Shown here: in pieces, positions 2,964 through 50,470 of the stretch | Layout of the letters: each line of letters starts with the position of its first letter | How positions within the stretch are numbered: position 1 is the stretch's first letter | NCBI GenBank assembly: GCA_963728565.1 | Contig: CAVSLC010000005.1 | Location: 128,001-192,000, forward strand | Source of the DNA: an uncultured delta proteobacterium | Lineage (GTDB): Bacteria; Desulfobacterota; Binatia; UBA9968 | Length of the DNA: 64,000 nucleotides | Direction of reading: 5' to 3' | Position numbers and translations under genes: made by a program | The notes under the pieces: model-generated | What the model saw: the letters and a program-made list of their open reading frames with translations, nothing else | The model's database searches: none | Told to the model about the DNA's origin: nothing

Positions 2964-3410
2964 ATGGAAGTCATTTTAAAAGAAGACGTCGCCAACGTCG
3001 GCAAAATCGGTGAAGTGGTGCGTGTTCGCGACGGCTATGCGAGAAATTACCTTCTGCCTCGCGGCCTCGTCTTATTGGCCAATAAGAAAAATCTGAAGAC
3101 ATTCGAGCATCACAAGAAAGTTGTCGCTGATCAAAAACAAAAGATCACAAGGGAGGCGCAGTCGGTGGGACAGAGCATTAGCGCCGTTTCACTGACCATT
3201 CGCATGCGAGTCGGCGAGGAAGGGAAGCTCTTCGGTTCGGTGACCAATATCCAGATCGAAAAAGCTTTGAAGGCGCAAGGACTCATCGTCGACCGACGCA
3301 AGATCCAATTGGAAGAGCCGATCAAGGTCGCCGGCGACTATGAGGTGCCCATCCGTATGACCGCCGATCTTACAGTTCCGCTAAAGGTATCCGTCATACC
3401 GGAAGAATAG
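2964..3410 (+). CDS. rplI: 50S ribosomal protein L9
   Basis: MEVILKEDV..VG..GEVV.V.DGYARNYLLP; GKLFGSVT. Confidence 0.97.
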   Translation: MEVILKEDVANVGKIGEVVRVRDGYARNYLLPRGLVLLANKKNLKTFEHHKKVVADQKQKITREAQSVGQSISAVSLTIRMRVGEEGKLFGSVTNIQIEKALKAQGLIVDRRKIQLEEPIKVAGDYEVPIRMTADLTVPLKVSVIPEE

Positions 3411-3546
3411 GCGGTGTGGGCAACCGAGCTCGAGCCGATACGCGATGACATCGTGCGCGCCTGGTTTAGCCGGTCACATCGATCCCATCTGAGTTGTTGA
3501 AATCTTCAGCCGCAACGGTAGCCGCGACTTTGACTCACGGCTGAAG

Positions 3547-4410
3547 ATGGTGATTTCGACGGCCATAGGCTCCAAGCGCGAGCTAGATCGCAGCCGACTT
3601 CTGATTTTTCTGGCCGCTTTGCTCTGGAGTCTGGCCGGGGTTTTCATCAAGCTCCTCGAGATCCACGCATTGACGATTGTTTTCTACCGAAGTTTCTTTG
3701 CGTCACTTGTTTTCGTCCCTTTTCTAAAATCCTCGAAGTTTCAGTTCAACGCGCCGATCATCGTTTCAGTGATCAGCTATACGGCCGCTATTACCGCCTT
3801 TGTGTCCGCAAATAAGTTGACGACGGCCGCCAATGCCATCGTTCTGCAGTACACGGCTCCAGTTCTGGTTTATATATTTTCTCGTTTGGTGCTGGGCGAA
3901 AAGATTTCGTATCCCAATGCCCTGGCATTGGCGGTTAGCATGGTCGGCGTCGGATTTATTTCCTTCGATAACGCCGGTCAGCCGGAGATGTCCGGGGTTC
4001 TGCTAGCTCTTTTGAGCGGGGTTCTGTTCGCCATTTACATGGTGAATCTGCAGCGAGTAAAAGAATTCAGCGCAACTTATCTGACCTGGTTGAACAATCT
4101 CGTCTGCGCGCTGCTGGTCTTGCCGTTCGTAAAACAGCCGTTGGCGCTTTCAATCGATCAACTTCTGATCGTGGCGATCATGGGAGCTGTGCAGCTGGGA
4201 CTCCCGTACTTTCTTTTTTCCAGGGGGTTACAGAGAATTCCACTGCAGGAAGCGGCGCTGATCGCATTGATTGAACCCGTACTAAATCCTGTCTGGGTGG
4301 CGCTGACCGTTGGCGAAATTCCGTCGTTCGCCACCTTGCTAGGGGGTAGCATGATTCTCGTCGCTCTGGCAGTTCGTTATCTGGGTCCGCTTCTAAGTAG
4401 ATCACGGTAA
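3547..4410 (+). CDS. EamA/DMT family transporter
   Basis: About 10 TM segments; TTAANAIVLQYTAP and ALIEPVLNPVWV motifs. Confidence 0.9.
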   Translation: MVISTAIGSKRELDRSRLLIFLAALLWSLAGVFIKLLEIHALTIVFYRSFFASLVFVPFLKSSKFQFNAPIIVSVISYTAAITAFVSANKLTTAANAIVLQYTAPVLVYIFSRLVLGEKISYPNALALAVSMVGVGFISFDNAGQPEMSGVLLALLSGVLFAIYMVNLQRVKEFSATYLTWLNNLVCALLVLPFVKQPLALSIDQLLIVAIMGAVQLGLPYFLFSRGLQRIPLQEAALIALIEPVLNPVWVALTVGEIPSFATLLGGSMILVALAVRYLGPLLSRSR

Positions 4411-4495
4411 CCGGTCAAAGTTTTGACGGTGCTGGCTTAGATCCTAAGTCGTTCTGTGATACGGTTGCTTAACTTTACACTCTGACACAAGGAGG

Positions 4496-5308
4496 ATGAG
4501 ATCTATGAATTGGGGAATGGAGAATCGATTAGCTCGAATTATCAAGCCGGCGGATAAGCGCGCGGTTATGCTCGCCGTAGACCATGGTTACTTTCTCGGT
4601 CCTACCAGCGGCTTGGAAGATCCGCGGCAAACAATTGAACCACTCATGCCGCACGCCGACTCGATCATGTTGACTCGCGGTGTGCTAAGAACGTCCGTCG
4701 ATCCCAACTTCGACAAGCCTGTTGTTCTCCGGGTTTCCGGCGGCGCTAGCATCCTTAAAGAACTTTCCAACGAAGACATCACGGTCTCAATCGACGATTG
4801 CATTCGTCTCAACGTATCGGCGATGGCGCTTTCGATCTTTGTCGGATCGGAGTTCGAGAAGGAGACGCTGGTGAGTCTGGCCAAACTGGTGGATGAGGGA
4901 GAGAAGTTTGGCATTCCGGTGCTCGCAGTAACGGCGGTAGGCAAGGACATGGCGCGTGATGTTCGCTACTTAGGCTTGGCCTGCCGCATTGCCGCGGAGC
5001 TTGGCGCTCACATCGTCAAAACCTATTACTGTGACGAATTCGAGCAGTTAATCGAGAGCTGCCCAATCCCGGTGATCGTAGCTGGTGGCAAAAAGACGCC
5101 AGAGCTTGAAGCTTTGGAACTAACCTACAATTCCGTTAAGGGCGGCGCCGTCGGGGTTGACATGGGGCGAAATATTTTCCAGTCCGATTGCCCCGTGGGG
5201 ATGATCCAAGCGGTGCGGGCGATCGTACATGACAACGTTTCGGTCAAAGAAGCATACAAGATTTATGAGGGCGCCAAAGGAGCCATCGCGAAGCGGGCAG
5301 CCGGCTAA
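4496..5308 (+). CDS. lsrF: LsrF-like class I aldolase/thiolase (DhnA family)
   Basis: MNWGMENRL, MLAVDHGYFLGPTSGLE, AELGAHIVKTYY (Schiff-base Lys), GVDMGRNIFQS. Confidence 0.88.
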   Translation: MRSMNWGMENRLARIIKPADKRAVMLAVDHGYFLGPTSGLEDPRQTIEPLMPHADSIMLTRGVLRTSVDPNFDKPVVLRVSGGASILKELSNEDITVSIDDCIRLNVSAMALSIFVGSEFEKETLVSLAKLVDEGEKFGIPVLAVTAVGKDMARDVRYLGLACRIAAELGAHIVKTYYCDEFEQLIESCPIPVIVAGGKKTPELEALELTYNSVKGGAVGVDMGRNIFQSDCPVGMIQAVRAIVHDNVSVKEAYKIYEGAKGAIAKRAAG

Positions 5309-5496
5309 AGTATTTTAGGAGCTCTACGTATCTCCGCCTGAATTGAGCACCACCTCGAGCATTCTCGCGCGTTCTTGGTCAGAAGACCAAGAACTTTTGC
5401 TCGGGAAACAATTCGGGCGGGCAGCTTTGTGATAACCGTATGTCCTCATCACATAAGCATCTGAATAACTCTAAGCAGAAACCTCGCCGCAGCAGC

Positions 5497-6522
5497 ATGC
5501 GAGTGGCCATGTATTACAGTAATCACGACGTGCGGCTTGAAGAGATGCGCGTTCCGAAGATCGGATCCGGTGAGTTACTGGTGCGCATTCGCGCCAGCGG
5601 CATTTGCGGCAGCGATCTGATGGAATGGTACCGCATCAAAAAAGCGCCGCTTGTCCTGGGGCACGAGATTACCGGGGACGTCATCGAAGTCGGCACCGGT
5701 GTTGGAAACTTCCGTGTTGGGGACCGAGTCTTCTCCTCGCATCATGTGCCGTGCGGGAAGTGCCGGTATTGTCATGCCGGTCATCAGTCGGTATGCGAAA
5801 TGCTCCGCACCACGCATTTCGATCCGGGCGGCTTCTCTGAATTCGTCCGTGTGCCCAGGATCAATGTAGATCTGGGGACGCTTCTTTTACCTGACGAGAT
5901 AAGCTTTGATGAAGGATCATTTATCGAACCGCTCGCTTGTGTGGTCCGTGCGCAACGATTCGCTCGACTTGCAACCGGCCAAACTGTGCTAGTGATCGGC
6001 AGCGGGATTTCGGGTTTGTTGCACATCCAGCTTGCGCGTGCTCGCGGCGCGCATCGAATCATAGCCACCGACGTCAGTGATTTTCGGTTGACGGCAGCGG
6101 CACGGTTTGGAGCGCATGCAACGATTCACGGTGCCGAGCAGGTTCCGGATCGATTACGTGAGCTGAACGAAGGCCGGTTAGCTGATGTGGTAATCGTCTG
6201 CACGGCCGCCATGCCCGCCATTCAACAAGCTATACAATCCGTTGATCGCGGTGGTACGCTGCTATTCTTTGCGCCAACGGCGGCTGGAGTTGATGTGCCG
6301 ATACCCTTGTTTGAATTTTGGCGAGATGAAATTTCCGTCGTCACTTCGTATGCCGGCAGTGGCGATGATTTGCTTGAATCGCTGGAACTTATCCGAACTC
6401 GTCAAGTGCGGGTTGGAGAGATGATCACGCATCGATTGCCGTTGTCGCAGGCGGGTTTAGGATTTCAACTTACCGCCAGCGGCTCGGAATCGATCAAAGT
6501 GATTCTCGATCCTTTGATTTGA
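5497..6522 (+). CDS. Zn-dependent alcohol dehydrogenase (sorbitol/threonine DH-like)
   Basis: GICGSD, GHE, CGKCRYC..C and GSGISG motifs. Confidence 0.9.
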   Translation: MRVAMYYSNHDVRLEEMRVPKIGSGELLVRIRASGICGSDLMEWYRIKKAPLVLGHEITGDVIEVGTGVGNFRVGDRVFSSHHVPCGKCRYCHAGHQSVCEMLRTTHFDPGGFSEFVRVPRINVDLGTLLLPDEISFDEGSFIEPLACVVRAQRFARLATGQTVLVIGSGISGLLHIQLARARGAHRIIATDVSDFRLTAAARFGAHATIHGAEQVPDRLRELNEGRLADVVIVCTAAMPAIQQAIQSVDRGGTLLFFAPTAAGVDVPIPLFEFWRDEISVVTSYAGSGDDLLESLELIRTRQVRVGEMITHRLPLSQAGLGFQLTASGSESIKVILDPLI

Positions 6523-6539
6523 GCGGCGCGTGCTTCCGG

Positions 6540-7541
6540 TCATTTCGTCACCCCTAACTCTTTGCGAGCTTTGTTTAGAAAAGAAAAATCGACGATATCG
6601 GAAACAGGGATCGGTTTTGTCACGTTGGCGTTTTCGCGGGCGAGGTCAATGAGCACTTGGACGGATTCCGGCCGAACATAGGCGTCCTTGGTTAACACCC
6701 GGCTCACGTGCCGGAACATTTCTCCGGCCATTCTTCTATCGTTTATGTTCCATTGCTTCATCAGAATATTGGTCACCGCATCGCTATTATTTCTGTCCCA
6801 GATAAACTGCAGGCCGCGTACTGTGGCGCGCACCATTCGATAAACCTCGTCGGGGTTCTCACGGATCCTCTTGTGTGAAGTCCCGAAGCCATTTTGGGCA
6901 AACTCCACAATATCGCCAAGAAATAGCAGCTCATTGTAGCCCTTCTCAAGTGCCACGATGTTCTCCGGGACGGAAAGCAGCGAGGCGTCGACGACGCCGG
7001 ACTCGAGAACCGCGAAGCGGCTGGCTGCGTTCCCTGACATCTGCAAAACCGAGACATCTTTACCAGGCTCGAGTCCGATTTGTTTCAATGCTTGATTGGC
7101 GAGAAGTGTGGCTGAGCCTCCCGGCGAGCTTCCGGCAATTTTTTTGCCCTTCAACTGTTTGACGTCTTTGATATTTTTTTGACCAACGAGAAACAACAGT
7201 GGCTTAGAGACGGTGAAGAGCAAAACCTTCATCGGCTGATCCCGAACCGCCGCGCCGATGGTGCCGGTCACAGCGCCGTTGTAGTCGACGTCTCCATTCA
7301 ACACGGCCGTGCTTGCCAGGTTCGCGGGCATAAAGATGATTTCCAAATCGATCCCTTCATCCTTAAAAAATCCACGGTGGAGCGCCGTATAAATAGCCAG
7401 GAAGGAGACATTGGTGGAAGAACTGCCCATTCGCACTTTCTTCAACTGAGACTGGGCATGGCCAGCAGAAGGAAAATGAACAGCACCCAGCGCCACGGCG
7501 AACATTAAAACGACTCTTGTCATGGGTTGGAAAAGTTTCAT
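6540..7541 (-). CDS. ABC-type substrate-binding protein, NMT1/THI5/SsuA-like
   Basis: Signal peptide; GFFKDEGIDLE, LKGKKIAGSSPG; paralog of 15552..16598. Confidence 0.85.
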   Translation of the reverse strand: MKLFQPMTRVVLMFAVALGAVHFPSAGHAQSQLKKVRMGSSSTNVSFLAIYTALHRGFFKDEGIDLEIIFMPANLASTAVLNGDVDYNGAVTGTIGAAVRDQPMKVLLFTVSKPLLFLVGQKNIKDVKQLKGKKIAGSSPGGSATLLANQALKQIGLEPGKDVSVLQMSGNAASRFAVLESGVVDASLLSVPENIVALEKGYNELLFLGDIVEFAQNGFGTSHKRIRENPDEVYRMVRATVRGLQFIWDRNNSDAVTNILMKQWNINDRRMAGEMFRHVSRVLTKDAYVRPESVQVLIDLARENANVTKPIPVSDIVDFSFLNKARKELGVTK

Positions 7542-43637: not shown

Positions 43638-44645
43638 TTATTTGACTTTATATTCCTTAGTTAACTTGTCGATAAAGCCGCTGGCATCGAGTTCTTTGAC
43701 CAGCGATTGGTCGGCGAACCGCTCAGGATCTTCCTTGAGGACCTTCGGATCCTTCTTCCCGACTTCCTGGATCGGCAAGTCATAGTATTCTTTGGCAGGG
43801 TAGGGTTTCAAAGGGAAATCATATTCGCGGAAGTTTTCTTCGATCACTTCCCGGTCTTGGACTTTCATGTATTTGCCGATGACTTTCATGCTGAATTCTT
43901 TGTTGGCTTTATAATAATGCACCCCTTCGATCATGGCTTTGGTGAAATTCACCAGATCGGCGCGATTCTTTGCAAGATAAGGCCGGCGTGACACGAAGAA
44001 GAGACTTGAATAAGGGATGCCGAGCTTGGATGCGTCGGCGATCAGGGAAAATCCGAGCTTGCGCGCTTGCAAGGTCATGGGTGGGGTGAGCATGGCGGCG
44101 TCGGCATTGGCGGTCTCGACGGCGGCAATTCGATTGGCCTGATTGCCGACCTGCAGTAACGCCACATCGGTATCGGGTCTGAGTCCTTCGCGCTGCAAGA
44201 GATAGCGCGCGGCAAAGTCGGCGTTGCTGCCGAAGCGGCTGATCGCGATGCGTTTGACTTCCTTGAGGCTCTTGATGCCTTTCCTGGCGTAAATACGATT
44301 GTCCATGGTGTTGCCAAGCCGGCCGAACATGACCAGTTCCAACGCCGGCGTTGAAATTACTACTTGTGGCGAGAACATGCCGACCTGAGCGTCGTCGGAA
44401 GACAACGCGGCAGCGGCAGATGCGGCGCCTTGGATAAAAATGAGCTGAACTTGATTGCCGTACTTTTCAAACAGTTTGGCTTCCTTGGTAATCCAGAGCG
44501 GTGCGAACTGGCCGACTTCGCTGGTCCAAACGACGTTGATGTTTGCCGCACCTGCAGCGGCGGATTGGCACAGCGCTCCGAGAGCAATTAGGCTCGCGGC
44601 TAAAAAGTGACGGCCATATGTCATTCGCAGCTCCTTTGTTTGCAT
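43638..44645 (-). CDS. ABC-type substrate-binding protein, NMT1/THI5/SsuA-like
   Basis: Signal peptide; LFEKYG, ISRFGSNADF; C-terminal ELDASGFIDKL. Confidence 0.85.
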   Translation of the reverse strand: MQTKELRMTYGRHFLAASLIALGALCQSAAAGAANINVVWTSEVGQFAPLWITKEAKLFEKYGNQVQLIFIQGAASAAAALSSDDAQVGMFSPQVVISTPALELVMFGRLGNTMDNRIYARKGIKSLKEVKRIAISRFGSNADFAARYLLQREGLRPDTDVALLQVGNQANRIAAVETANADAAMLTPPMTLQARKLGFSLIADASKLGIPYSSLFFVSRRPYLAKNRADLVNFTKAMIEGVHYYKANKEFSMKVIGKYMKVQDREVIEENFREYDFPLKPYPAKEYYDLPIQEVGKKDPKVLKEDPERFADQSLVKELDASGFIDKLTKEYKVK

Positions 44646-44724: not shown

Positions 44725-45700
44725 ATGAGCCGACTCTGGATAGCATTTTTGTTGCTGCTATCGACCAGCGATGTCACAGCGCAACCATTAACCCGGGTGA
44801 TGTCGGGATATGCTGCCACGTCAGGACCGCATGCAGTCCTTTGGCTGGCTCGTGAAGCTGGTCTGTTCGAGAAAAATGGTTTGCGCACTGAGGTCGCTTA
44901 CATACGCAGCGGGTCGACAATGGGCCAGGCGTTGGTCGCCGGAGAGATCCAGTTAGCGCAAATGGGCGGTCCGGCGGCTCTCGCGGCAGGTGTCGCCGGC
45001 TTTGACGTCACGATGGTCGCCGTTGCACTGAATACTACGCCCATCGTGATCATGGGCAAGGTTTCCAAAATGGAAGAGCTCAAGGGCAAAGCAATCGGGG
45101 TGACGCGCTACGGTTCCAACACCGATATATCTGCGCGTTTCGCGATCAGAAAAGCGGGGCTGCAACCGGAAAAAGATGTGGCTCTAGTCCAGTTGGAAGA
45201 CTATGCGGGGATTATGGGCGGCATTCAGTCCGGGCGGATTGCCGCCGGCGCGTTGGCTGATCCGTTTACCGATCATGCCAAGAAGTTGGGCTATAAGGAA
45301 ATCGCCGATATCGCGGCGCTCGGCCTGGAGTTCCCCTTTGTCGGGATTGTCACCAAAAAAACTTTCATCAAGGAACAGCCGGATATCGTCCAGAGATTCG
45401 TGCGCGCCTATACCGAGTCTATCAACTCTATATAAAAACAATCGTGAGCTGGCGAAGCAGGTAACCAGCAAATACACCGGCATCAAAGATCCTGAAATTC
45501 TGAACTCCACGGTGGATTTTTACGCGCCCAAGCTAGCCAGCGTGCCCTATCCGACAATCGGCGGAATACGATTTGTCTTGGACCAGGTCGCGACTCGCGA
45601 TCCCCGCGCCAAGAACTTCAATCCTGAGACTTTCATGGATCTGCGGTTTGTAAAGCAACTCGAGGACAGCGGATTCATCCAGGGATTGAACCGGAAGTAG
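44725..45700 (+). CDS. ABC-type substrate-binding protein, NMT1-like, with frameshift near 45425
   Basis: 44725..45435 continues as YKNNRELAKQV...QLEDSGFIQGL in another frame. Confidence 0.8.
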
Positions 45701-45887: not shown

Positions 45888-46385
45888 CTACCGCCTGACG
45901 AGTGCCAGGCCCAGTAAGGTTGCGATTGGGCCGATCGTAGCGTTGATCTTTAGCAGCAGAAACCATTTTTGCCAGTCGGCGCGTAAAGCCTCCGGCCACG
46001 AGTCTGTGGTGATTGCTGCCTGATTGGTATTGGAAGCGATCTTGGGGCCATACTTGAACACTTGCAGCGCATGATGAACCAACATCGCGACAAAGAGCAG
46101 CAGCTTGACTGACAGAATCGTCAGATAATATTGTCCCAGGTGAGCGCCGGTCAATTGACTGCGCAGAACCAGGTTCAGTATTCCTGTAACGAATAACAGC
46201 CCGATCGCCGTCCAGGACAGCAATTCAAAAGTTATCCGCCCGCGATTCAGAAGTTTTAAACCGAGCCCTGCCTTTAAATCGTGCACCGCCGGTCCAAAAA
46301 CGATCAGAAAAAAAGCTATTCCGCCGAGCCACATCGCCAGCGCCAGGAGATGCAGCAGGAGATTCACAGAATGTAGTCGGGTCAT
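45888..46385 (-). CDS. CopD/DUF4149-like 4-TM membrane protein
   Basis: LHLLALAMWLGG..FF; K..L motif in TM3. Confidence 0.65.
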   Translation of the reverse strand: MTRLHSVNLLLHLLALAMWLGGIAFFLIVFGPAVHDLKAGLGLKLLNRGRITFELLSWTAIGLLFVTGILNLVLRSQLTGAHLGQYYLTILSVKLLLFVAMLVHHALQVFKYGPKIASNTNQAAITTDSWPEALRADWQKWFLLLKINATIGPIATLLGLALVRR

Positions 46386-46705: not shown

Positions 46706-47707
46706 GTGCAATGCATCATGCTTTCTGTGGCGACGGTGGCATTCTTGCGTCATTCGTCGCCGGGCGATGCCCAGAGTATCGAAGAGACTTATCAACGGGC
46801 GTTGAAGGAGGGCGGCGCGCTCAACGTCTACGGTACTTTAACCCCGGACACCGCGGCTAAAGTTCTGCCGCTATTCGAGAAACGTTTTCCCGGTCTCAAG
46901 ACGGTCAACACCGGAGCAAGTTCCGACAAGATCGTCGCCCGAGCGATTTCCGAGGCGCGCGGCGGCAGAACCATTGGCGATGTTTTTCACATGAATCTGG
47001 AAAACATCATGCAGCTGCATGAGCAAGGCTTGGTGCTGGAGAAGCTGCCGGCGGAAGCCGACGTGTTTCCAAATCATCTCAAGGGCTCCTATTGGATCGC
47101 CACCCGTTTCAACACCTTGGTGGCGGCCTGGAATACGCAACTGGTGAGTAAATCGGACGAGCCTAAGAATTTCGAAGAGTTTGCCGATGCGAAATGGAAA
47201 GGCAAGCTGTTGGCCGAACCTCGTGATGCCGAATTTTTGATCGCCTTTGCCGAACAGAGATATAAAAGCAGCGATAAAGCGATCGAGTTGTTTAAAAAAA
47301 TTGCCGCCAATAATGTCGAGTTTCATAGTGGCCACCCGCAGCTGGCGGAACTGCTGACGGCTGGGCAGGGCGCGGTTTGCTTAACCTGTTACACCCATCA
47401 TCTGCTGCCAAGGATGCACAAGGGAGCGCCGTTGAATTACATGCGTAGTTTCGGCGTCGGTCTAATCAGCGCCACCGCGGTCTTCAAAAACGCGCCTCAC
47501 CCAAACACCGCGTGGTTGTTTCATCGCTGGGCGGCCTCGGACGAAGGACAAAGGGCGTTCGGTATCGAGGGGCGGGTGCCGGCGAATCCGAAAGTCGAGC
47601 CCGCCGAGGCTATCGGGCTCAAAACCGTCTACGGCCTGGGCGAGAAAGAATACCGGGAGTTCTCCAGGTACGAACAGCTTTGGAAGCAGATCTTTAGCTT
47701 GCGCTAG
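46706..47707 (+). CDS. extracellular solute-binding protein (Fe3+/thiamine ABC SBP family)
   Basis: FEKRFPG, AWNT.LV, KWKGKL, APHPN.A.LF..W..SDEGQ; the natural ATG with RBS at 46669 is out of frame. Confidence 0.85.
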   Translation: MQCIMLSVATVAFLRHSSPGDAQSIEETYQRALKEGGALNVYGTLTPDTAAKVLPLFEKRFPGLKTVNTGASSDKIVARAISEARGGRTIGDVFHMNLENIMQLHEQGLVLEKLPAEADVFPNHLKGSYWIATRFNTLVAAWNTQLVSKSDEPKNFEEFADAKWKGKLLAEPRDAEFLIAFAEQRYKSSDKAIELFKKIAANNVEFHSGHPQLAELLTAGQGAVCLTCYTHHLLPRMHKGAPLNYMRSFGVGLISATAVFKNAPHPNTAWLFHRWAASDEGQRAFGIEGRVPANPKVEPAEAIGLKTVYGLGEKEYREFSRYEQLWKQIFSLR

Positions 47708-47739
47708 GATTGCGCAATCCGAGATGTGATCCGCCCGGG

Positions 47740-49419
47740 CTATCTCCATGCGTCGATAGAGACGCTCTTGTCGTAGTTGCAACCCATCACTCGCCAGTAG
47801 CCGTTGGTTTCGCCGCCGACCACCACCACCTTTATCTCATCTAAGCGAAACATCGGTACGAGTTCATCGGCAGCCGCTTTGAGCTTGGTGGCGTAGGGCT
47901 CCTCGCCCTTGAGCGCCCGTGGGTGAATGTAGTTTTGAACAAGTTGATCGTCCCAGTAAATGCCGGCCGCCATGGTGGCATGCTCGTAGATCCATTGAAT
48001 CAACTTATCCTTGGTATCGAAGCCGCCCCTATCAATAAATTGCCGCGCCACGATCGGATCGAGTATGAGAGTGGGCGGTGTGTGTGGGTTTAGACCTTGA
48101 AGCAGATACTGAACATGATCGCGCCAATGTTTTTCTCGAAGTCCCATCTGGAACGACGTGGTGCGACAATGCCTAAATAGGCTGACAACGCTGTCGCTAG
48201 GATCAAAGCCATGCTCGACGTGGAGCGGCATCCAGGGACTTCTTTCCTCATTTTCCGCGTAGGTGATGCTGTTATAGGCGTAGTTATTTCCTTGGGAGCC
48301 CATGTAGGTTTCGCCCGGCACGGATCCGCCTTGCAAATTCTGCGACAGCAGTCCGAAAGCCCTGCCGATGGTGGCGTTGGCGTGGTTGTAAGGTCCCATC
48401 GCGCCAATTCCCCAGTTCATGCCGATCTGATGCCGGACCGGTCCATTCACCACCGCCATGGTGGCGCCGGAAGTGGTGGTGCTCGGTCGGGCCGTGACTT
48501 CTGAGGCCGCAAGGGCCAGGATGACTGGGAGGTATTCAGGTTTGGCGCCGGCCATGACCGCGTTCACCGCAACCTTCTCTACGGTGAACTGCCATGCCTC
48601 CCGGGTGCGTGTCGGGCGCATAGTGCCCACCACTTCATCCGCTTTGCGGCGGGTGCCAGACAGCATCGCTGCCACCCTCTCTTCGGTCGGGACGACGATT
48701 GGCAAATAGTCGGTCCAACCGTTATCCAAGAACAAACGCTGCAGATTACTCTCGTTGTCGGGATCAATCAGCCTCGGCGTTGACCGATCGATCTTGATCT
48801 TCTGCTTCTCCTGATCGCTTAGCGGCTTTGTCAGCGCCTCAACGATTTCTTCCATGAAGGGTTTGCCGGTTACCGGATCGCTGCCGTCGATGTAGGCTTT
48901 CAGTTCGGAAGAGGTCTTGCCCATCACAGGCATCGGTACAAAGGCGAACCTCTGATGCGGCATTCCTTTGGTATAAGCGACGGATCTTACGACCGAAGCG
49001 AAAGGTTTGGCGTGAACACCCACCGTGGGCACGCCATACTGGTTTTCCAGAGTAATACAATGCACGGCGACCGCCGGCGCGCACGTGCTTCAATGCCCGA
49101 CCGCCATAACGGCGGCAGCATCGTGCGCGCGGATTTCGCCAAAGAGCTTTGGATCATCTTCGGTGTAAACACCCGCTTTGCTCGCCAAGATCGTTTTTGC
49201 TTTGGGCAAGTGTTCGGCGAACCAAGCTTGCATCTGTTGCAGCAGTTTGTCGCCATCGACGAAATGAACATCGACCAAATAAATCGTTTTGCCGTTTAGA
49301 CTCTCAAACCGCGGCGCCATACCCAGCTGTTCGATGGTTGGCGGGTACCCCATCGGGTTCAAAGCGCTAACTTTTCCGTCGGCGGACGCAACGAACTCGA
49401 CTGTTTCACTTTGATTCAT
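47740..49419 (-). CDS. putative selenoprotein: UGSC-like UxxC domain fused to a conserved GWTDxLPI domain (559 aa, Sec at TGA 49090-49092)
   Basis: ORFs 49090..49419 and 47740..49065 are in the same frame, joined by VGH-TGA-STCAPAVAVHC; SECIS-like hairpin immediately 3' of the TGA. Confidence 0.85.
49061..49089 (-). promoter_or_regulatory. candidate bacterial SECIS element
   Basis: After UGA: AGCACGUGCGCGC-CGGC-GGUC-GCCG-UGCA; apical loop starts with G at +18. Confidence 0.6.
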
Positions 49420-49804
49420 GTTGAAGCTCTCCTGCGATTTGACGATTTATTTCGCGACCGGACAATGCCCCGGCGGTATCGACGCATTCATTGAACTCAA
49501 CTCACGCTTTATGCCAGCGTCGCTCCGATGGCAATAGCGAAACGCTGACAACTACCGATGAACGGTGATCCAATCCGATTGCGGCGCGAAAATTTTTTCT
49601 AGACAATCCATTGCCGTCTGGTCATCTTGATTTGCTTAGCCTCGGAGATCTGCGAGAGCTGACATGGATTGGAGTAAAAGCAAGCGCGGCAAAGTGGCAT
49701 TGGCGCCGCGATGCGGGCTTTTCCCCTTGAAATGGCCAGGTGCCTATGTTAGCTAAATTTAAGTTTTTCTGCCCATTCCCCAACACAAGGATGGATTGCT
49801 AGAG

Positions 49805-50470
49805 ATGATGCGCTGGTTGCCAGAAGATGTATCGACCTATGGTCACGAAATAGACTCGTTATTTTTTCTTATTTATTACATCACGGCCGCCACTTTCATA
49901 TTGGTCACGGTGTTGATGGTCCTGTTTTTAGTGATGTACCGCGAGAGACCTGGCCGGCGAGCGACCTATAGTCACGGCAACACCACGCTTGAGATCATTT
50001 GGACGATTATTCCCGCCGCTATACTGATCGTGCTCTCGTTCATGAGTGTGAATACCTGGGCAAAGTTGAAAAACACCGTGCCGCCCAGTGACTTCGCCAT
50101 CCAAGTTACCGCCAAGCAGTTTAACTGGGGCATTGCTTACCCGGGCGCCGACGGCAAACTCGGCACCGAGGATGACGTCAAATTCGACAACGATGTCCAT
50201 GTGCCGGTTAATAAGGTCGTCCACGTCCATCTCGGATCTGAAGATGTGATTCACAGCTTTTTCATTCCCAACCTTCGGTTCAAGCAGGATATGGTTCCAG
50301 GACGAACAGTGACGGGTTGGTTTGAAGCGACTAAACCCGGAAGGTATGAACTGCCCTGCGCGGAATTGTGCGGCTTCGGCCACTCCGGTATGAAGGGTTG
50401 GCTGCACGTCCACAGCGCCGAAGATTACGCCAAATGGGCGGCGGAAAATTTGGCCGCCAAGCAGCAGTAA
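49805..50470 (+). CDS. coxB: cytochrome c oxidase subunit II
   Basis: LEIIWT; DVIHSF; CuA motif CAELCGFGHSGM; no heme c domain. Confidence 0.95.
   Translation: MMRWLPEDVSTYGHEIDSLFFLIYYITAATFILVTVLMVLFLVMYRERPGRRATYSHGNTTLEIIWTIIPAAILIVLSFMSVNTWAKLKNTVPPSDFAIQVTAKQFNWGIAYPGADGKLGTEDDVKFDNDVHVPVNKVVHVHLGSEDVIHSFFIPNLRFKQDMVPGRTVTGWFEATKPGRYELPCAELCGFGHSGMKGWLHVHSAEDYAKWAAENLAAKQQ

Follow-up and report, generated by a model that had tools for sequence, protein, structure and literature searches.

Two called open reading frames lie in one frame across an in-frame UGA

The window analysed here is a 64,000-nucleotide (nt) stretch of DNA from an uncultured delta proteobacterium of the Binatia (assembly GCA_963728565.1, contig CAVSLC010000005.1, positions 128,001 to 192,000). 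On its minus strand, at 49419..47740, lies the subject of this report: a predicted selenoprotein gene of the UGSC family, with an in-frame UGA and, directly after it, a hairpin that resembles a selenocysteine insertion sequence (SECIS) element (Table 1). The first part of the gene is called as an open reading frame (ORF) of 109 amino acids (aa; 49419..49090) that terminates ...AAVMAVGH-TGA. After the TGA, the same frame reads AGC ACG TGC (S T C) APAVAVHCITLE and continues into a 441-aa ORF (49065..47740); from GH-TGA into this second ORF, which ends at 47740, the frame reads STCAPAVAVHCITLE. Translation of 49419..47740 with TGA as U gave 559 residues with one non-standard step (U110) and a TAG stop, which bears out the statement of a first-pass annotation of this DNA that the frame stays open from the 109-aa ORF into the 441-aa ORF. 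The same annotation had seen no clear ribosome-binding site for the 441-aa ORF, and its internal GTG start (49065) is indeed preceded by GC-rich coding sequence without a purine-rich Shine–Dalgarno sequence.

TGA is the ordinary stop codon in three of ten Pfam-confirmed neighbouring genes (COX1, CtaA and CtaB), and the genome is therefore not globally recoded. An independent DNA contig from a soil sequencing run spans 47881-49302 and crosses the TGA; among the differences listed between this contig and the window, none places another letter at the TGA site.

The annotation had further proposed that standard gene callers split this gene. In a search of 5.8 billion proteins, 8000 were scored and 6498 of these matched at E<=1e-3. 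The 120 best matches fell into two length classes: 31 were 397-441 aa long and covered 63-79% of the query, and the other 89 were 540-572 aa long. The shorter matches fit an ORF called from just after the UGA, so the proposed splitting is recurrent in the databases.

Table 1. Predicted features of the selenoprotein locus, in window coordinates
Feature	Position	Strand	Details
Complete selenoprotein gene (predicted)	47740..49419	minus	559 codons; ATG 49419..49417, Sec codon 110, TAG 47742..47740
Shine–Dalgarno-like AGGAG, 9 nt 5′ of ATG 49419	49429..49433	minus	read from sequence; putative function
UGA codon 110, motif GH-U-S-T-C	49090..49092	minus	aligns to invariant Cys; TGA in related loci
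Cys113 codon, likely resolving partner in UxxC (putative redox role)	49081..49083	minus	invariant column, 19-homologue alignment
SECIS-like hairpin GCG(C)CGGC - GGUC loop - GCCGUGC	49062..49080 (+13..+31)	minus	loop 49072..49069
UGSC-family domain, residues 20-175, across the UGA	48895..49362	minus	Pfam PF24696
C-terminal domain, ~370 residues (190-559), without family name	47743..48852	minus	AlphaFold2 (AF2) model, homologue search

Codon 110 is TGA or cysteine among homologues

The first-pass annotation had expected cysteine or selenocysteine (Sec) at this position in homologues, and both were found. In a first alignment of 19 full-length homologues (59-63% identity, collinear with the 559-aa protein), the U110 column was Cys in all 19. 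The motif GH[C/U]S.C.P was invariant in this alignment, as were the individual residues H109, C110, S111, C113, P115, H120 and H136. At the DNA level, codon 110 was TGA in 18 of 18 loci from species-representative genomes, the record titles of which name Binatia, Chloroflexota, Latescibacterota, Methylomirabilota/Rokubacteria, Acidoferrum, Opitutales and a ‘Gammaproteobacteria’ metagenome-assembled genome (MAG). Of 576 confirmed metagenome loci, the 80 best were read at this codon: 67 carried TGA, 12 a Cys codon (TGC or TGT) and one was unresolved (L133); the loci were ranked by likeness to the Sec-form query, and the TGA:Cys ratio is not a census. The Cys-form DNA was drawn from plasmids and metagenomes, and the Pseudomonadota genome group reached via locus L031 comprised 17 genomes only. 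Homologues came mostly from soil-type metagenomes and MAGs.

Selenocysteine machinery is encoded in the same genome

The genome that contains the window (4.53 Mb, 28 contigs, 80.6% complete) encodes the components for Sec insertion on which the first-pass annotation had made its reading depend. The genes selA (607.5 bits), selB (395.7 bits) and selD (382.3 bits) all scored above curated cut-offs and lie side by side on contig C28. The tRNA-Sec gene is on contig C25, where it scored 74.2 bits in Rfam, above the cut-off, and was called by ARAGORN as SeC with anticodon tca. The selD gene (contig C28, 38569-39495) itself carries one in-frame TGA, and SelD of this genome is probably a selenoprotein as well.

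A conserved SECIS-like hairpin follows the UGA

With the U of the UGA numbered +1, the hairpin has the core CGGC-GGUC-GCCG at 49076..49065, with a stem that begins at +17 and a loop that begins at +21. The first-pass annotation had described a hairpin with a G-initiated loop at ‘+18’; it is present, and the position given for it was about right. The pairs are G13-C31, C14-G30, G15-U/C29, C17-G28, G18-C27, G19-C26 and C20-G25, with C16 bulged and G21, G22, U23 and C24 in the loop. Relative to the hairpin of Escherichia coli fdhF, the bulged base and the GU of the loop are shifted here by about one position towards the UGA. The 4-nt loop starting with GG, the stem of at least 4 bp, the 17 nt from UGA to loop and the energy of -8.5 kcal/mol for the core in the window agree with the four criteria for bacterial SECIS elements quoted in a 2026 review. 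With the bacterial SECIS consensus (bSECISearch model, as summarised in PMC13188914) it shares a hairpin right after the UGA and inside the coding sequence, a 4-nt loop that starts with GG followed by U, and a stem of 4 bp that is extendable to 7. The hairpin here differs from the consensus in that its sequence is specific to this protein family.

Conservation was examined in 90 Sec-form sequences, namely the window, the 18 genome loci, four further loci and the 67 metagenome loci, which together contain 42 distinct 36-mers. Positions +16..+28 read CCGGCGGUCGCCG almost without exception. The synonymous sites +18, +21, +24 and +27 were invariant in all 90, and the synonymous sites +6, +9, +12, +33 and +36 varied freely. 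Position +28 was G in every Sec form despite variation in the encoded residue (V/A/E/D/G). In contrast, the same positions drifted in 12 Cys forms (10 metagenome loci and two from Neorhizobium; the loci L124 and L141 were recognised later and left out), with G at +18 in nine, G at +21 in six, C at +24 in seven and A at +28 in all 12. The local minimum free energy (MFE) of +12..+33 averaged -10.3 kcal/mol in the 42 distinct Sec forms and -3.1 kcal/mol in the 11 distinct Cys forms. In 51 distinct Sec-form sequences, 93.8% of cells were paired, compared with 17.9-70.3% when the partners were slid by 1-3 columns. The association of the TGA with the 13-nt hairpin core is more than chance, because both recur in 90 of 90 Sec-form homologue sequences. 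Several short contigs that belong to other organisms, from soil DNA and RNA-library runs, matched 49060-49101 alone (42 nt containing the GH codons, the UGA and the hairpin), with flanks unlike those of the window. These contigs are an independent sign of conservation at the nucleotide level.

The UGA lies inside a UGSC-family domain

The first-pass annotation had noted a resemblance of the UxxC motif to the UGSC family, and this was confirmed by Pfam. PF24696 matched the protein across the UGA with 74.7 bits (E 1.3e-20; gathering score 25; profile positions 3-157 of 172) and no other Pfam family was listed for the whole protein at E<=0.1. The UxxC arrangement is retained here as U-S-T-C and not as a literal U-G-S-C. 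In the structural model, the N-terminal domain is fairly confident and forms a beta-alpha sandwich of five beta-alpha units (residues 45-178; predicted local distance difference test (pLDDT) about 62-95), in which U110 follows strand 3 and stands where helix 113-126 starts. The model of the whole protein was mediocre (pLDDT 70.1) and gave no Foldseek match at E<=1e-3. The top solved structures matched by the N-terminal domain in VIA were flavodoxin-like or Rossmann-like, among them receiver, B12-binding and PurE domains (Z 8.2-10.8), and no thioredoxin was among the top 50 matches. In a thioredoxin-type topology the CxxC/UxxC comes after strand 1. The predicted topology and these matches give no support to the label ‘thioredoxin-like’ that the first-pass annotation and the literature use for the Sec domain, although such a fold may still rank below these 50.

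A large C-terminal domain accompanies the UGSC domain, fused or next door

The C-terminal domain matched no NCBIfam family and no Pfam family (nothing relevant at E<=10). It is nonetheless widespread, with matches to 4162 cluster representatives at E<=1e-3 and 458 at E<=1e-30. The lengths of these matches correspond to fused proteins (~540-570 aa), proteins cut at the Sec (~420-450 aa), the domain alone (~370 aa) and other fusions (~710 aa). An AF2 model from a 40-sequence alignment was confident (pLDDT 90.8, predicted template modelling score 0.88). The polar D237, T245, E281, N335, N348, R353 and E389 are near-invariant, and the invariant and near-invariant residues as a whole are polar or structural; no invariant or near-invariant Cys was listed for the domain in this alignment, and neither a conserved Cys nor a pyruvoyl-type cleavage site was recognised in it. 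A class I (Fe-S) fumarate hydratase-like fold was considered, since Foldseek gave weak matches to it (E 2.8e-4), but they superposed poorly, with a template modelling (TM) score of 0.24 and a root mean square deviation of 15 A, and no fold is named. The VIA comparison with class I fumarate hydratase aligned 88 residues with Z 5.5 and 153 residues with Z 5.0 (5.5 A), and the best VIA score for the domain overall was Z 5.7, for residues 230-358 only. A sequence profile search of the PDB gave nothing significant (best E 0.6), and the ESM Atlas search returned only clusters of the protein's own family.

The two domains also occur as adjacent genes. On plasmid 2 of Halalkalicoccus jeotgali, a 201-aa gene for a ‘UGSC family (seleno)protein’ is followed directly by a 332-aa hypothetical protein that corresponds to the C-terminal domain. 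The genome of the window contains a similar pair: contig C6 carries at 69685-70272 an ORF of 195 aa whose single in-frame TGA lies in a literal U-G-S-C motif. This ORF scored 112 bits on the NCBIfam model NF041046 with end-to-end model coverage, and 178 nt downstream of it lies a stand-alone 357-aa gene for the C-terminal domain (70451-71524). A strong hairpin, GUCGUGGA-GUG-UCCACGAC, follows the TGA of the 195-aa ORF, which judged on its sequence is probably another selenoprotein gene missed by callers. Distant U-G-S-C paralogues have a different hairpin in the same place, and two of them differ from each other by paired changes (AUCAUGGA-GUA-UCCAUGAU versus GUCGUGGA-GUA-UCCACGAC).

Among 201 genomes sampled from the phylum of the window, 21 had a match to the protein at E<=1e-30. 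Two genomes of this phylum hold seven and eight matches, most with one TGA, and a Methylomirabilota MAG holds 11. The paralogue matches are sometimes clustered on one contig (for example contig C3 of genome G124). On the evidence of these matches, the family is expanded into many apparent paralogues in some lineages. A fused homologue with 28% identity, annotated as hypothetical, was also seen on a plasmid of Variovorax boronicumulans (2990-6563), directly after genes for an NAD(P)/FAD-dependent oxidoreductase and a tripartite tricarboxylate transporter (TTT) binding protein. This oxidoreductase might supply electrons to the CxxC centre.

Genomic neighbourhood and expression

The first-pass annotation had also placed the gene divergently from an aa3 oxidase operon. 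The arrangement was confirmed by the divergent COX2, COX1, CtaA and CtaB genes beside the gene; it is confined to the closest relatives (COX1 upstream in 3 of 67 loci) and carries no functional weight. For this tally, the longest flanking ORF on each side was assigned to Pfam families (67 upstream and 72 downstream flanks, in 75 loci with enough flanking sequence), and long ORFs in GC-rich flanks may be spurious. No family dominated; the counts included GNAT (6/67), MFS (5/72), SBP_bac_6 (5/72) and COX1 (3/67). In an all-against-all BLAST of the ORFs of 101 loci, most clusters were shadow frames of the gene itself, and the largest clusters of true neighbours comprised 11 and 9 loci.

Solute-binding proteins and transporters of several types recur loosely near homologues. 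The convergent neighbour in the window (46706-47707, plus strand) encodes an SBP_bac_8-type solute-binding protein, the product of which is 28% identical (E 3e-26) to a binding protein encoded 1.8 kb downstream of the Neorhizobium galegae Cys orthologue. In N. galegae, GntR and ABC transporter genes come after that binding protein. We treat the neighbourhood as a lead towards small-molecule metabolism, and no more. Further along the window are divergent genes for NMT1-like binding proteins (43638-44645, minus strand; 44725-45435, plus strand), followed by a CopD-like gene (45888-46385, minus strand). A 165-aa ORF (45203-45700) overlaps the 236-aa NMT1-like gene, which is possibly truncated or frameshifted.

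A promoter and terminator scan found no terminator and one promoter-like site that was not above chance. Contigs from RNA libraries that match the gene give a weak hint of expression, although such contigs cannot show transcription.

Relation to known selenoproteins

The UGSC-containing protein entered the literature in 2007, as a selenoprotein without a known function. The Global Ocean Sampling study of 2008 (PMC2398784) placed UGSC among the most abundant selenoprotein families, with 255 Sec and 21 Cys sequences and a UxxC motif. It also includes a ‘UGSC/Unknown_1’ fusion (Fig. S1A) and assumes a Trx-like fold for UGSC, which the literature regards as a redox family. UGSC is still listed without a function in reviews of 2022 and 2026. 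The protein described here shares with the UGSC family (Zhang and Gladyshev 2007/2008; PF24696; NF041046) the Sec-first UxxC, the existence of Sec and Cys forms and the frequent occurrence in environmental metagenomes. It differs in length, as the NF041046 model has 147 positions compared with 559 aa here, owing to the 370-residue C-terminal domain. The ‘UGSC/Unknown_1’ proteins of PMC2398784 likewise combine UGSC with a conserved domain of unknown function, a likeness that is one of description only; they came from aquatic organisms, unlike the mostly soil-type homologues found here. The exact fusion may already have been described under that name. The first-pass annotation had spoken of an ‘uncharacterised selenoenzyme’, and of this the selenoprotein reading stands. 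A new kind of gene it is not, given that UGSC and its fusion to an unknown domain were published in 2007-2008, and that full-length Cys orthologues are numerous.

The UxxC at a helix start is shared with the thioredoxin-fold selenoproteins (Trx-like, Prx-like and DsbA-like). The protein described here differs from these in its five predicted beta-alpha units and in its top structural matches, which are to receiver, B12-binding, PurE and Rossmann-type domains. In GrdB and PrdB (selenoprotein B of the glycine and proline reductases), the small molecule on which the Sec acts is bound to a partner subunit. The pairing of a Sec domain with a substrate-binding domain may be functionally analogous. 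These proteins also have a UxxC (the PrdB motif appears in the table of PMC2398784). Neither GRDB nor a glycine reductase family was among the Pfam matches listed, at thresholds of E<=0.1 (whole protein) and E<=10 (C-terminal domain).

Interpretation of the UGA and of the domain pair

UGA 110 is almost certainly decoded as Sec, to judge from sequence comparison, which would give one product of 559 residues. We also consider it highly likely that the parts of this reading hold jointly, namely the single frame, the Sec/Cys pairing among homologues, the conserved SECIS-like element, the Sec machinery, the membership in UGSC and the recurrent linkage of the two domains. In the mechanism that we propose, codon 110 would be read by the genome's own SelA, SelB, SelD and tRNA-Sec, and the hairpin 13-31 nt after the U of the UGA, with its GGUC apical loop, would direct the decoding. 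The product would consist of the N-terminal UGSC alpha/beta domain (GH-U110-S-T-C113) and the 370-residue C-terminal domain. We infer that it is a Sec/Cys redox enzyme, in which U110 and C113 would cycle between a selenol/thiol pair and a selenenylsulfide and would serve a reaction whose small-molecule substrate is bound by the C-terminal domain. For this last step, in which a U110/C113 selenenylsulfide centre would serve a reaction of the C-terminal domain, we put the chances at about even.

Several results weigh against this account. Covariation in the hairpin was weak: a double-sided change occurred in one of seven pairs, which was also seen in 183 of 500 shuffles, and three of the seven pairs never varied in the 51 distinct Sec forms. 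The support for the hairpin is thus its conservation and pairing together with the contrast with the Cys forms, and not covariation. The global MFE fold of +1..+45 was a different structure (-15.0 vs -10.0 kcal/mol), the 66 nt after the UGA folded no better than shuffles (MFE z 0.48), and an Rfam scan of 47600-49900 gave no family at E<=1 (0 matches). On the protein side, the NCBIfam equivalog model NF041046 gave 56.1 bits (residues 43-177), below its cut-off of 125. The fused clade lies outside this model, because three full-length Cys homologues with the NCBI or UniRef name ‘UGSC family (seleno)protein’ likewise reach no more than 55-60 bits on it. Lastly, neither Foldseek nor VIA provided an informative structural homologue of the C-terminal domain, and the flank tally showed no conserved gene neighbour, with the top family in 6 of 67 upstream and 5 of 72 downstream flanks.

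Alternative explanations

If the UGA were a real stop, the locus would encode separate 109-aa and 441-aa proteins, and the resemblance to a single gene would be historical. Split pairs of UGSC and C-terminal domain genes do exist elsewhere, and the 31 of the best 120 database matches that are 397-441 aa long have the form of the called 441-aa ORF. However, the natural split forms break between the domains, ~90 residues later, whereas the break here would fall inside the UGSC domain (20-175), exactly at a Cys that is invariant in homologues. The 441-aa ORF also has no Shine–Dalgarno sequence, and the conserved hairpin and full Sec machinery are present, which leaves a genuine stop very unlikely. 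A fault of sequencing or assembly at the TGA, or the recent inactivation of a Cys codon that left a pseudogene, is hardly credible. A change from TGC to TGA requires one base, and the genome is a draft of 28 contigs; nevertheless, all 18 independent genome loci and 67 of the 80 metagenome loci share this TGA, always with the hairpin, which the Cys forms do not have. The soil DNA contig that spans the site independently likewise has no other letter there among the differences listed.

The main alternative accepts Sec at codon 110 and gives it another role. Sec110 could be a metal ligand, or a carrier of selenium, sulfur or metal, together with H109, C113, H120 and H136, which would make the protein a metalloenzyme or a delivery factor. 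The invariant set H109, C110, S111, C113, P115, H120 and H136 includes a His/Cys/Sec cluster of a kind that could bind metal, and the model of the N-terminal domain resembles flavodoxin-like or Rossmann-like folds and not thioredoxins. The sole sequence hint from the PDB, which was not significant (E 0.6), was to a Cys-rich cluster-binding stretch of CO dehydrogenase. Against such a role, no metal-binding family was matched in Pfam or NCBIfam, and the predicted placement of the UxxC at a helix N-terminus is the usual one for thiol/selenol oxidoreductases. The literature also counts UGSC as redox. A metal or carrier function therefore appears improbable, and we favour the Sec/Cys redox enzyme.

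Significance for the UGSC family

For annotation, the consequence is a single selenoprotein gene in place of the two called ORFs. Many database entries need mending in the same way, as 31 of the best 120 matches look like post-UGA fragments. The comparison of Sec and Cys forms further shows an RNA structure constraining synonymous sites inside a coding region. UGSC has been listed among the most abundant environmental selenoproteins since 2008, and it is still without an assigned function. Its partner domain can now be treated as a unit of its own, with a confident model, and is tied to UGSC by fusion in some cases and by gene adjacency in others. In addition, N. galegae is a cultivable carrier of a Cys form that is 60% identical. 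Taken together, these points make the function testable. We tentatively suggest that the C-terminal domain is a new enzyme family and an obligate partner, fused or next door, of the UGSC Sec/Cys domain across bacteria and haloarchaea. This pattern, with the expansion to 7-11 matches in some genomes, may point to substrate-diversified, selenium-dependent reductases of small organic molecules, a class that would have escaped notice until now through the splitting of Sec forms by gene callers.

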